From a virus (Duplodnaviria; Caudoviricetes): DNA of 64,000 bases. A model generated the notes under the pieces. It was not told where the DNA came from. It ran no database searches and saw nothing but the letters and a program-made list of their open reading frames with translations. Shown piece after piece: positions 4,066-56,435 of the stretch. Every line of letters begins with the position of its first letter. Position 1 is the first letter of the stretch. A program made the position numbers and the translations under genes. The stretch spans positions 1 through 64,000 of the IMG/VR virus record IMGVR_UViG_3300034407_003088; one strand, written 5' to 3'.

Positions 4066-4073
4066 TATAAATA
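4066..4073 (-). promoter_or_regulatory. TATTTATA intergenic motif (putative phage late promoter)
   Basis: Lies in the 35-bp gap upstream of the kinase. The same octamer occurs in gaps at 33471, 35664, 47731 and 56428. Confidence 0.55.
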
Positions 4074-18791: not shown

Positions 18792-19499
18792 CTAAAACAT
18801 TACCCAAGTACCAGTACCATGGTGTGGATAATCACTTTTGTATTGATAATAAAAAACATCTTCAGGTACCTCTTGTTTCTTACCCCAAGTTTCTTCTGTT
18901 GGTGTATTGGTGGATAAGTTATTATCCTCAATAACAAACTCTATTGGTAAATTATTATTACGAGAGTATTTATAAACTTCATGAAATATACCACTTTCAA
19001 ATGTCATATCACCAATGAAACACCATACCTTTGGTAATTTATCCTCTATAGTTTTTTCATTTTTGAGTTTTATAGATTTTGCAACTCCTAATGCTATTGG
19101 TAATCCACCACCCACAATAGAAGTTGAGTAAAACTTTCTCTGATAATTAAGTGGTGGTTGTGTTTCATCTTCACTATAGAAATGATTTACACTCATACTC
19201 TTACCATGTACAATATCACCCATTAAAGTATTACTATCAATACCATGAAGTAGTGCATGATAATGATTTCTCCAACTACTAAATACCCAATCTCTGTCAC
19301 TTACATACTGAAATATTTCAATCAGTTGTTCTTCGTTATTTGAACTTAAATGTACAGGTGCTTTAATTTCACCATCATTATATTTTTGCTTGACTTCTTT
19401 CTCAAAGTTTATTAAATTATCTTTGGTTAAAGTTACCTCTCTAACCTTTCCACCCTCTATAATATGTTTAGGTATCTGTACCATTTTTATCCCTCTCAC
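18792..19499 (-). CDS. ThDP-dependent dehydrogenase E1-alpha-like subunit (short form)
   Basis: VHLS..NEE, SWRNHYHALLHG, SIVGGGLPIALG, and the ThDP-binding GD...EDN motif (FIGDMTFESG...VIEDNNLS). Confidence 0.85.
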   Translation of the reverse strand: MRGIKMVQIPKHIIEGGKVREVTLTKDNLINFEKEVKQKYNDGEIKAPVHLSSNNEEQLIEIFQYVSDRDWVFSSWRNHYHALLHGIDSNTLMGDIVHGKSMSVNHFYSEDETQPPLNYQRKFYSTSIVGGGLPIALGVAKSIKLKNEKTIEDKLPKVWCFIGDMTFESGIFHEVYKYSRNNNLPIEFVIEDNNLSTNTPTEETWGKKQEVPEDVFYYQYKSDYPHHGTGTWVMF

Positions 19500-19986
19500 T
19501 TAATATTGGATTGTCTATTGGCCAATTTATTTTTAACATTGGGTCATTCCATCTGACTGATGTTTGTTCTTCCCAATCTACATAATCGTCAGGATAGGAT
19601 TGAGTATAATGAAATACACATTCATCTGATAAACACAGATGTCCATTTAGAAAACCTGGTGGAACCAATACACTTTTACAATTTTTGTCATCTAATGTAA
19701 AACTATCCCACTCCAAATAAGTTGGACTATCTTCACGATAATCAACAACTACTAAATAAAATGCACCATAAACACAAGTGATATGTTTCCAAGTTACATC
19801 ATCTCCATGTAAACCACGAAGTACATTTTTTCTTGAGTTTGTAAATTTAGAGATTTTGTGTTTGGGTGTGTCCCAAGGCCATTCCCAATTTGTCCACATT
19901 GTTCCACGATAATCTGTTTGTGTTTCTGGTTGAAATATCTTAATATCTTTTAAGATTTCACTTCTCCATGATGAATAATTAAACAT
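19468..19986 (-). CDS. rfbC: dTDP-4-dehydrorhamnose 3,5-epimerase family cupin
   Basis: DYRG, SRKNVLRGLHG, VVVDYREDSPTYLEW, VLVPPGFLNGH, RWNDP..INWP...ILSERD. Confidence 0.9.
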   Translation of the reverse strand: MFNYSSWRSEILKDIKIFQPETQTDYRGTMWTNWEWPWDTPKHKISKFTNSRKNVLRGLHGDDVTWKHITCVYGAFYLVVVDYREDSPTYLEWDSFTLDDKNCKSVLVPPGFLNGHLCLSDECVFHYTQSYPDDYVDWEEQTSVRWNDPMLKINWPIDNPILSERDKNGTDT

Positions 19987-20951
19987 TATAATGATGCTCC
20001 ATAACTTAATGGAAACGCATTTCTATAGTGTGAACTTTCATGTGGAACAATCATTTGATATGCCTTTATCAATTCTTCTATCCCATTGTCTAAACTAAAG
20101 TTTGGTTTCCATCCTGTTGATTCTATTTTTTTATTACTTACTATGTAATCTCTTTTATCAGGGTCTACAAAATAATCTGAATAGGTTACCGAAGTATCAG
20201 GAATATATTTTTGTATTCTCTCTACTAATTGTTTCTTATTTATATTTGTATCTGATAATCCTACATTGAATATCTCGTTTTGATATTCATTATATTTTAA
20301 TGTCATATAACTAAATACTGATGCCACATCTTGAATATGAACAAAATTACGAACAAATTCTTTTTCAAATATAGTAATATATTTATCGGTCAATAATTTA
20401 TAAACAAACTCATTAACTAATAAATCTAATCTCATACGACTTGACACACCAAATACGGTTGCCAATCTAAAAGTTATTCCATTACTATTGTTCTTTATAT
20501 AATCTTCTGAATTACACTTTGTAATACCATAATGACTGATTGGTGTTAGTGAATTTGTCTCATCTACTTCACCTTTATTTGTTCTACTACCATAACCACT
20601 ATTAGTATTTGGATAGAGTATTTGTTGATTTGGTGATAAATTATCTACGATATTTTTGATTTGATTAAAATTGACATCGGTTGCAAGTTGTTTGTCCTTT
20701 TCACAACTTGGAAAACCGACAAGAGCGGCAAGTGGAATAATAACATCATGTGTTTTTACTTGTTCAAGTAATAAGTTTTTGTCACGAACATCACCATAGA
20801 TAAAATTAAAACCTGGTTTACCAAATAAATCTAATAATGATGTTTGATTATACATCAAATTATCAATCACGGTAACCTCGTGATGTAACATTAGTTGTCT
20901 TGTGATAACTGAACCTAAATATCCAGCTCCACCTGTTATTAATATTCGCAT
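19986..20951 (-). CDS. NAD-dependent NDP-sugar epimerase/dehydratase (extended SDR)
   Basis: MRILITGGAGYLGS, LAALVG, HYGITK (YxxxK), FRLATVFGVS.RMRLDLLVN. Start ATG at 20951 follows GGAGG; the track start at 20978 lies inside the terminator. Confidence 0.9.
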   Translation of the reverse strand: MRILITGGAGYLGSVITRQLMLHHEVTVIDNLMYNQTSLLDLFGKPGFNFIYGDVRDKNLLLEQVKTHDVIIPLAALVGFPSCEKDKQLATDVNFNQIKNIVDNLSPNQQILYPNTNSGYGSRTNKGEVDETNSLTPISHYGITKCNSEDYIKNNSNGITFRLATVFGVSSRMRLDLLVNEFVYKLLTDKYITIFEKEFVRNFVHIQDVASVFSYMTLKYNEYQNEIFNVGLSDTNINKKQLVERIQKYIPDTSVTYSDYFVDPDKRDYIVSNKKIESTGWKPNFSLDNGIEELIKAYQMIVPHESSHYRNAFPLSYGASL

Positions 20952-20976
20952 AAAAAAGCCTCCAATAAATAGAGGC
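20952..20976 (-). terminator. Intrinsic terminator hairpin containing the epimerase RBS
   Basis: GCCTCTA-TTTAT-TGGAGGC followed by TTTTTT, then directly ATG. Confidence 0.7.
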
Positions 20977-21070
20977 ATCTATAATAGTAAAACTATTTAA
21001 ATGCCACCCTTGTTTTATAGTCTAAAGTAGTGGGTTAGGACTTTCTCCGAAGAGTGTTAGCACTACCTGA
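20952..21070 (-). ncRNA. Putative cis-regulatory 5' leader RNA (riboswitch/attenuator-like)
   Basis: GTAGTG/CACTAC stem enclosing CTC-TTCG-GAG, then a GGCAT..ATGCC hairpin that overlaps the terminator 5' arm; downstream of a TACTTATA motif. Confidence 0.5.
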
Positions 21071-21076
21071 CTTATA

Positions 21077-21084
21077 TATAAGTA
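21077..21084 (-). promoter_or_regulatory. TACTTATA variant of the putative promoter motif
   Basis: Immediately after the sulfotransferase stop codon and just upstream of the structured leader. Confidence 0.5.
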
Positions 21085-21870
21085 TTAGTAATCATTAAAA
21101 TTATCACTATATTTTAATAACTCAAAATCTTTTTTACACAACCTACTAACTATTTCTATTGTGTTATCATTATAGTAATCTTTCCAACTTGGTAAATATT
21201 TTTGTGATGGATTTTTAGATTCTTCTAATGTTCTACCATCATATAAATTATAATCTTTGAGTGGCAAATGTCCTTCATCGTTAAAAATTTTATTAAAGGT
21301 TTCTGATTCATGAACTTTTGATAATTTTATAAGTTCAAATTCATCTGTGGGCATGTTACTAAATTCATTCCACATTGGATGTGCATGACTATCATGTATT
21401 TCACCTTTATCAAATCTTATACACCATTCTTCAAAACTTTCTTGCCAATCTTGTTGAGTCATATCTTCTAAAGTAGTCTTGAGTTTTATAGGTTTATATG
21501 TACTATAATCATCAATGACATCATATAAATAGAATATTTCACCATCATTGTTATGTCTATGTTGTTCACTAATTTTTTGACCAAATGTCCAACAAGATAA
21601 AAATCGTTCATATGGATTTCTTGTGATACATATTTTGTGTAGATTATTCCATACCTCTTTATCTATAGAGTTATACACCCAAGAAGTCCTTAATGGATGA
21701 CCTTCTATTTCTAAATGTGTATCAACATAAGACCATTTTATACAATCTCCGATATAAGTAGAACCTGCTTTATTACCAACTATAATTACTGAATTTAATA
21801 TTGAATCTGTTTCTTGTAGATTATTATGGGTGTCCATATAAAATCTTTGTTTTAGTGTTAAATAAATCAT
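21085..21870 (-). CDS. Sulfotransferase (Sulfotransfer_2-like)
   Basis: NKAGST PAPS loop, ITRNPYERFLS, WKDYY....E.V..L.K.DF..L.Y. Confidence 0.85.
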   Translation of the reverse strand: MIYLTLKQRFYMDTHNNLQETDSILNSVIIVGNKAGSTYIGDCIKWSYVDTHLEIEGHPLRTSWVYNSIDKEVWNNLHKICITRNPYERFLSCWTFGQKISEQHRHNNDGEIFYLYDVIDDYSTYKPIKLKTTLEDMTQQDWQESFEEWCIRFDKGEIHDSHAHPMWNEFSNMPTDEFELIKLSKVHESETFNKIFNDEGHLPLKDYNLYDGRTLEESKNPSQKYLPSWKDYYNDNTIEIVSRLCKKDFELLKYSDNFNDY

Positions 21871-23353: not shown

Positions 23354-23454
23354 TTATAAATAAACGGGTCTCTTTTTTTAATCTCACGAAGTCTCTTTTT
23401 AAAAAGATACCATCTTTTAATTTTATTGTAATATTTTTTTAATAACTTTATCAT
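23350..23454 (-). CDS. 34-aa basic microprotein (MIKLLKKYYNKIKRWYLFKKRLREIKKRDPFIYK)
   Basis: Manual translation; fills the gap exactly with ATGA overlaps at both ends. Confidence 0.75.
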   Translation of the reverse strand: MIKLLKKYYNKIKRWYLFKKRLREIKKRDPFIYK

Positions 23455-33470: not shown

Positions 33471-33478
33471 TATAAATA
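33471..33478 (-). promoter_or_regulatory. TATTTATA intergenic motif
   Basis: In the 29-bp gap upstream of the methyltransferase, followed by AGAGG and ATG. Confidence 0.55.
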
Positions 33479-35663: not shown

Positions 35664-35671
35664 TATAAATA
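35664..35671 (-). promoter_or_regulatory. TATTTATA intergenic motif
   Basis: Fills the 11-bp gap, 3 nt before the ATG of the Hint protein; no SD is visible. Confidence 0.5.
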
Positions 35672-47730: not shown

Positions 47731-47769
47731 TATAAATATAAAACAAGGGCAGTTATATACTTATTAATA
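47731..47769. promoter_or_regulatory. Divergent promoter region: TATTTATA on minus (47731-47738) and TATACTTATTAATA on plus (47756-47769)
   Basis: Back-to-back motif copies, each oriented toward its gene (giant fibre on minus, RHH on plus). Confidence 0.55.
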
Positions 47770-56427: not shown

Positions 56428-56435
56428 TATAAATA
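56428..56435 (-). promoter_or_regulatory. TATTTATA intergenic motif
   Basis: In the gap upstream of the 48-aa ORF and the leader-bearing enzyme cluster. Confidence 0.55.

Follow-up and report, generated by a model that had tools for sequence, protein, structure and literature searches.

Several small riboswitches, namely preQ1-I and preQ1-II, SAM-II and SAM-V, and NAD+-II, hide the Shine-Dalgarno (SD) sequence in a pseudoknot, and formation of the pseudoknot is the OFF state. To our knowledge, no validated riboswitch class senses a nucleotide-sugar, and it is rare for a new class to offer clear covariation together with a defined pseudoknot and several expression platforms. The EAR element, a leader of Bacillus, is now known to act in processive antitermination. 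This epsC or EAR element had earlier been described as a riboswitch candidate, as had the wcaG motif, an orphan found almost only in marine metagenomes and phages, where it occupies the 5' UTRs of exopolysaccharide or NDP-sugar genes, wcaG-type SDRs among them (Weinberg et al. 2010, PMC2864571).

Here we describe a phage leader that lies before an NDP-sugar cassette and for which a literature search returned no description of the motif. Our reading, to which we assign a probability of roughly 60%, is that it is a promoter-proximal, cis-acting, OFF-type riboswitch-like switch of an uncatalogued family, serving a phage cassette for nucleotide-sugar tailoring.

The locus and its promoter-like box

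The window, that is, the whole stretch of DNA analyzed, covers the initial 64 kb of a linear 79-kb IMG/VR virus record whose completeness is put at about 41%. The G+C content of the window is about 30%, and its tightly packed genes are all encoded by the minus strand. No cultured phage is close, as judged from a single protein: the SbcC-like protein is 37.5% identical to its counterpart in the nearest one, Microcystis phage Mel-JY01. The leader fills a 133-nt intergenic gap (20952-21084; minus strand, as are all leader features and genes given below) between a sulfotransferase-like gene (21085-21870, with its stop codon at 21087-21085) and an SDR epimerase/dehydratase-family gene (19986-20951; Pfam PF01370, 2.2e-27). 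This SDR gene, the first that the leader would regulate, is followed by genes for an RmlC-like cupin (19468-19986; PF00908, 6e-35) and a ThDP E1-alpha protein (18792-19499; PF00676, 1.1e-11), in agreement with the first-pass annotation, which had named the downstream genes as SDR epimerase, RmlC and E1-alpha. A long run of glycan-tailoring genes lies beyond these three.

The SDR gene starts with the ATG at 20951 (MRILITGGAGYLG), directly after a U-tract. The start given by the ORF lister, at 20978 (ATG 20976-20978), was rejected: this in-frame ATG lies inside the 3' arm of a hairpin (H2, discussed later), has no SD, and is out of frame in the relative L247. Gene callers over-extend the gene likewise in other relatives, for instance in a 204-aa call in L299.

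At its 5' end the leader begins with a promoter-like box, TACTTATA (21084-21077), which stands 4 nt before a conserved AGUC and was not recognized in the first-pass annotation. Every lineage has such a box before AGUC, at a distance of 4-9 nt; it reads TACTTATA in the window and in L299, and TATTTATA in most relatives. Of the 15 copies of TATTTATA on the sense strand of the window, 6 lie outside ORFs of at least 100 aa (4066-4073, 23355-23362, 33471-33478, 35664-35671, 47731-47738, and 56428-56435), where about 0.5 would be expected, as such sequence makes up 3.2% of the bases; none of the eight antisense copies does so. TATTTATA is thus probably the phage's promoter box, of the -10-only kind, which would place the conserved core at the 5' end of the transcript.

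Parts of the window are also present in four RNA-library runs as assembled contigs at a depth of 2-7, and these pieces cover and bridge the leader; such contigs are uninformative on where transcripts start or end, on strand and on level, and may derive from DNA carry-over. In one metatranscriptome contig (run X18), 20917-20952 is fused to opposite-strand sequence from 20657-20434, with the break exactly at the last U before the ATG. The break may have arisen as an artefact of assembly or cDNA synthesis, or may hint at an RNA end at 20952.

A conserved core with a pseudoknot

Relatives of the leader were sought among SDR homologues on viral and metagenome contigs, by pattern scans, with a covariance model (R1) run on whole virus records, and through homologues of the downstream proteins. 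The leader was found in about 30 phage and metagenome contigs, from uncultured marine phages, that fall into 11 sequence lineages. Lineage 1, the window type, also holds L002-L006, L167-L172, L174, L180, and L230; lineages 2-5 are L176/L250/L292, L212, L247/L248, and L271/L272; and lineages 6-11 are L249, L299, L273, L295, L297/L298, and L294. The window core scores 84.1 bits with R1 (E = 1.9e-16) and is the sole copy in the 79-kb record. Exactly one copy is present per leader-carrying phage record, including a 216-kb record rated 100% complete. To the left of the leader the neighboring gene varies (sulfotransferase-like, 2OG-Fe(II) oxygenase, and others), while to its right there is, in all cases, one cassette of SDR, RmlC-like cupin and ThDP E1 alpha/beta genes, which argues that the leader belongs to the downstream genes. 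As is general for riboswitches, the element thus occupies a 5' UTR before a functionally coherent gene set.

The covariance model found no leader in 34 of 41 related virus records searched, and most phages that carry the SDR, RmlC-like and E1 alpha/beta genes have no spacer before them, so control by the leader must be dispensable. In L283, L285, L286, L290, and most of L007-L051, the cassette genes (with DegT) overlap and there is no leader. Because most cassette-bearing marine phages are without it, we regard the RNA as a lineage-specific addition to a widespread cassette. The contexts of RmlC homologues yielded no further lineage, the leader being missing in most. A degenerate pattern built on two CUAAC boxes matched 115 stretches, all of them chance matches or contigs already found, and two looser patterns run on IMG/VR returned the same 9-12 contigs and nothing further. 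A pattern for the tail of the core, run against 185,579 species genomes, gave 13 matches, of which 12 had no core. The remaining match was L265 (NZZP01000015.1, 14.7 kb), a phage contig that is identical to L002 throughout the leader region and is binned in the Gammaproteobacteria MAG NAT245; its presence there more likely reflects misbinning than the identity of the host.

The core common to these relatives is about 70 nt long and comprises two helices (P1 and P2), the invariant junctions CUAACR and AAAGWCCWAWCC, an A-rich tail, and GGGWGG. Its elements follow a conserved order: a TATTTATW box, a spacer of 4-9 nt, AGUC with a short spacer, the P1 5' strand, and (C/A)UAACN make up the 5' part; P2, AAAGWCCWAWCY, the P1 3' strand, a variable linker of 2-7 nt, a GACUAUAAAA-rich tail, and GGGWGG make up the 3' part. 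In the window, the core extends from AGUC to GGGUGG (21004-21072), as delimited by model R1 and covariation. The P1 5' strand GUAGUG (21066-21061) pairs with CACUAC (21032-21027). Between the two strands lie junction J1/2, CUAACA (21060-21055), where the family consensus is (C/A)UAACN; the P2 hairpin CUC-UUCG-GAG (21054-21045), which has a counterpart at the corresponding place in every relative; and junction J2/1, AAAGUCCUAACC (21044-21033), whose CCU (21039-21037) and CC (21034-21033) form the 5' strand of a pseudoknot. P1 is followed by GACU and the A-rich tail, AUAAAACAA (21010-21022), a nearly invariant segment, and by GGGUGG (21004-21009), which serves as the 3' strand of the pseudoknot and mimics an SD.

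The first-pass annotation had proposed a structured stem-loop domain in the upstream part of the leader, and had suggested collecting homologous leaders and looking for covariation. Such homologues exist, and in them the domain behaves as a conserved RNA whose P1, P2 and pseudoknot covary around invariant junctions. In alignment A4 (14 sequences, fitted to the model, which favors the structure), 97% of the 234 pair cells of P1, P2 base, pseudoknot, and a candidate outer helix P0 are standard pairs, compared with 36-60% when the 3' partners are slid by 1-3 columns. The observed covariation score of A4 was reached by none of 500 column shuffles. Taking A4 together with the smaller alignments, standard pairs fill 97-100% of the pair cells versus 27-61% in the shifted controls.

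Compensatory changes occur at six pairs: three in P1, one in P2, and two in the pseudoknot. Those in P1 affect half of its six pairs (G-C to A-U, A-U to G-C, and U-A to A-U), and P1 contains G-U wobbles too; the G-U pairs indicate that the gene-sense strand is the functional RNA. P2 has six different stem sequences, with lengths of 10-28 nt across lineages; its first pair is always C-G, and its second alternates among U-A, G-U and A-U. The junctions of A4 are invariant while the helices vary: UAAC of J1/2 is the same in all 14 aligned sequences, as are AAAG, CC, A, and C of J2/1. Close relatives differ less in the core than in the coding sequence beside it (conservation of 100% vs. 89.5%, and 94% vs. 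79%). RNAalifold, applied to A4, predicts P0 and P1. P0 would pair AGUC (21072-21069) with GACU; it never covaries and has one mismatch, at the outer pair, in L294, and we therefore treat it as tentative, neither supported nor refuted. AGUC may alternatively be part of the transcription start region.

Folding of the leader as a single sequence was not significant (z = -1.57), its minimum-free-energy fold misses P1, and a terminator scan of the region found sites no more numerous than in shuffles. That the leader is more than chance is thus a conclusion from the comparison with relatives, through the pairing and the compensatory changes, and not from single-sequence folding. A long-range pairing of GAAAGUC with the U-tract, which appears in the minimum-free-energy fold, was dropped as it is not conserved in L176/L250.

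The pseudoknot goes beyond what the first-pass annotation described, and links the core to the hairpin H2 that follows it. The tail GGGWGG is complementary to the junction strand CCW(AW)CY, and the two would form an H-type pseudoknot. The only two changes of L271/L272 at otherwise invariant positions, a junction C to U (the column of 21033) and a tail G to A, are complementary in the pseudoknot register (C-G to U-A). At the W:W position (the column of 21037), four lineages have A-U, four have U-A and three have U.U, and A.A never occurs; pseudoknot covariation consists of the one C-G to U-A event and this one position, with U.U in three of the 11 lineages. The tail consensus holds across lineages, one of which has GAG and one UGG. 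In L297, L298, and L294, the tail reads GGGAGG and is the sole SD, 9 nt before the AUG, with no downstream hairpin; in these relatives a formed pseudoknot would necessarily cover the ribosome-binding site. An alternative pseudoknot, UGCUA:UGGCA, was rejected: it uses one of the bases of P1, and L249 changes a C to A without compensation. A third candidate pair of the pseudoknot, C21032-G21009, has U and U in L295, where P1 retains a G-U pair. Comparison across the lineages shows a core predicted to fold as P1 and P2 around two invariant junctions, together with an H-type pseudoknot. A conserved, structured, aptamer-like domain with covariation, as riboswitches generally have, is thus present.

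Expression platforms and candidate switching

Downstream of the core, the last GG of GGGUGG supplies the first two bases of H2 (GGCAU...AUGCC; 20974-21005), a candidate antiterminator or anti-sequestor. The second hairpin, GCCUCUA-UUUAU-UGGAGGC (20958-20976), was found by the terminator scan and is predicted from its sequence to be an intrinsic terminator that also sequesters the SD: it has a 7-bp stem with four G-C pairs and a 5-nt loop, and U6 follows. Its 3' arm contains the SD, GGAGG (20963-20959), and the U6 tract (20957-20952), also recovered by the terminator scan, doubles as the spacer between SD and AUG. The GCC at 20976-20974 is common to H2 and the terminator. All of the hairpins that had been described in the gap from the sequence alone are present at the positions given for them.

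Three types of expression platform can be distinguished. Type A (the window, L176/L250, L212, L247, L271, L249, and L299) has H2 and an SD-containing terminator. In these leaders the last GG of the tail opens H2, the 3' arm of H2 ends in GCC (or UC), which is the start of the terminator hairpin, the SD forms the 3' arm of that hairpin, and the AUG is spaced from it by the U-tract, U5-U9 in the relatives. Type B (L273 and L295) has H2 and an SD hairpin with no U-tract, which points to an action on translation only. Type C (L297, L298, and L294) has no hairpins, and its GGGAGG tail is the SD. H2 is present in all type A and type B lineages, and its arms covary between lineages (GGCAU/AUGCC, GGCAUC/GGUGCC, GGCACU/AGUGCC, and GGCAC/GUGUC). 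Among close relatives the terminator varies in its loop only; other lineages rebuild the stem with different sequences. In L212 (1415-1503) and L249 (reverse strand, 2495-2584), the loop of H2 accommodates a further terminator-like hairpin with a separate U-run, and these two lineages would thus have a tandem platform with two potential stop points.

The first-pass annotation had further held that antiterminator and terminator are mutually exclusive and that one switch could control both transcription and translation. The first of these proposals gains from the relatives, in that the GCC overlap between H2 and the terminator or SD hairpin recurs, with differing sequences, in every lineage having hairpins; the second is supported by the position of GGAGG inside the 3' arm of the terminator and of the ATG directly after U6. 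When the segment from tail to start codon was folded, the state with H2 complete and that with the tail free and a full terminator differed by 0.2-0.9 kcal/mol in all type A lineages, and such near-equality means that a few pseudoknot pairs could decide between them. In silico, then, the alternative structures of the expression platform overlap the aptamer-like core, an arrangement general among riboswitches.

These structures suggest the following course. With the pseudoknot formed, and presumably stabilized by a ligand, the tail would be occupied and H2 would lose its closing G-C pairs; the weakened H2 would free the shared GCC, and the terminator could form. Transcription would then stop at the U-tract and GGAGG would be buried, giving the OFF state. 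With the pseudoknot open, the tail would nucleate H2, the terminator would be blocked and the SD exposed. The relatives would follow an equal logic through a hairpin for the SD only (type B) or through the tail itself as SD (type C). As modeled, all three types share one parity: a closed pseudoknot would hide the SD (and, in type A, also give the terminator), and an open one would leave the SD free. The comparative evidence establishes the leader, at the level of predicted structure, as a conserved, pseudoknotted, cis-acting RNA whose pseudoknot strand is coupled to SD and terminator. We infer that an effector stabilizes the pseudoknot and so shuts the cassette off.

Candidate effectors and comparison with known families

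We consider a small metabolite the most likely effector on account of the compact core, the invariant junctions, and the variety of platforms. For the putative ligand of an OFF switch, the most natural guess is a compound of the NDP-sugar pathway, either its end product or an intermediate. That the leader is a new phage-encoded riboswitch class that binds a nucleotide-sugar, formed as the product or as an intermediate in the branched or deoxy-sugar pathway under its control, is a specific form of this guess that we put forward tentatively. The same RNA and wiring could instead answer to a protein, either a phage regulator or an encoded enzyme acting on its own mRNA, that binds the junctions and stabilizes or opens the pseudoknot. 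Protein-controlled phage leaders are well known, among them the T4 gene 32 pseudoknot and the targets of RegA, and invariant junction loops with a pseudoknot beside an A-rich strand would suit a protein site equally. However, no gene for a candidate RNA-binding protein was seen travelling with the leader, the left neighbor of which varies, and a compact pseudoknotted core with three expression platforms is a pattern typical of metabolite riboswitches; we regard a protein effector as possible but doubtful.

The leader might also act with no ligand at all, as a constitutive attenuator that sets a fixed, low level of read-through and translation, a 5'-terminal mRNA stabilizer, or a fold sensitive to temperature or Mg. 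Its position at the predicted 5' end of the transcript would be in keeping with this, and nearly isoenergetic alternative folds would give a fixed partition just as well; but a leader of this sort would need neither at least 25 invariant unpaired nucleotides at two junctions nor a tail re-wired in three ways with unchanged logic, and we think it unlikely. Less probable still is a stand-alone, trans-acting small RNA gene of about 120 nt that abuts the SDR gene by chance. Although a promoter-like box and an intrinsic terminator do bracket the element in the window, types B and C have no terminator, which makes such a gene improbable, and type C uses its conserved tail as the SD for the gene that follows; the constant downstream cassette and the single-copy nature of the element likewise speak against it. 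As for an ordinary intergenic spacer, in which the terminator of the upstream gene is joined by chance hairpins in AT-rich DNA, the folding score (z = -1.57) and the ordinary number of terminator sites would be expected of it. We give this explanation almost no weight: it is refuted by the covariation, and runs against the invariance, the variable upstream gene, and the order of the elements, with a promoter box first and a terminator last, abutting the ATG.

If the leader does prove to be a nucleotide-sugar riboswitch, it would be the first of that kind, and the virus could tune glycan tailoring by feedback during infection. The candidate is small (about 70 nt) and comes with a clean, testable OFF model, and it occurs in phages, for which little is understood of riboswitch-like control over auxiliary metabolic genes. 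The type C version, in which the pseudoknot strand is the SD, is minimal and suits a simple reporter assay. The identity of the ligand would reveal the sugar made by the unusual ThDP-dependent cassette and would provide a compact sensor part. Were the effector a protein, the leader would still be a new phage element for translational and transcriptional control.

Among catalogued RNA families there is no counterpart. At gathering scores, Rfam 15 gave no match in the 64-kb window, and at E <= 10 only chance-level matches were found at the locus and in the other lineages, so that an Infernal search of the kind proposed at first pass leaves the leader with no Rfam 15 family. The earlier remark that the sequence could not be matched to the wcaG or manA motifs is confirmed by their covariance models: that for wcaG (RF01761, cut-off 42 bits) has no match at the locus or in the other lineages, and that for manA (RF01745, cut-off 55.2 bits) has none in the whole record at E <= 10. 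The only wcaG match in the record, a weak one outside the window (G000:C1:68925-69003; 16.2 bits, cut-off 42), is probably chance, since below-cut-off matches occurred in 12 of 14 control genomes too. The original proposal of a new riboswitch- or attenuator-like leader is therefore supported by the lack of an Rfam match as well as by the covariation and the constant NDP-sugar cassette.

By biology, the closest known family is wcaG, which is likewise a marine phage leader before NDP-sugar or SDR genes; it was, however, reported from T4-like cyanophages, and this phage has no close cultured relative, the nearest showing only about 37% identity in a single protein. The epsC/EAR element resembles the leader as a structured RNA heading a long polysaccharide gene cluster, but there is no sequence or model match, and a coupling of tail and SD would be unexpected for a processive antitermination element. 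With preQ1, SAM-II, SAM-V, and NAD+-II, the leader family would share a small H-type pseudoknot in which an A-rich strand precedes a G-rich 3' strand that is, or overlaps, the SD, and the type C relatives L297, L298, and L294 work in the manner of preQ1 and SAM-II switches on paper. It departs from preQ1, SAM-II, SAM-V, and NAD+-II in its extra helix P2, its other conserved junctions and the absence of an Rfam model match; in the window, moreover, the tail is only an SD mimic, the real SD lying in the terminator, and the pseudoknot would act indirectly through a relay of antiterminator and terminator. That relay recalls the platforms of classical transcriptional riboswitches and attenuators, as the aptamer 3' strand overlaps the 5' arm of the antiterminator, and the antiterminator 3' arm overlaps the 5' arm of the terminator. 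Unlike those platforms, the terminator of this leader has the SD as its 3' arm and the spacer between SD and AUG as its U-tract, so that one hairpin would block transcription and translation alike.
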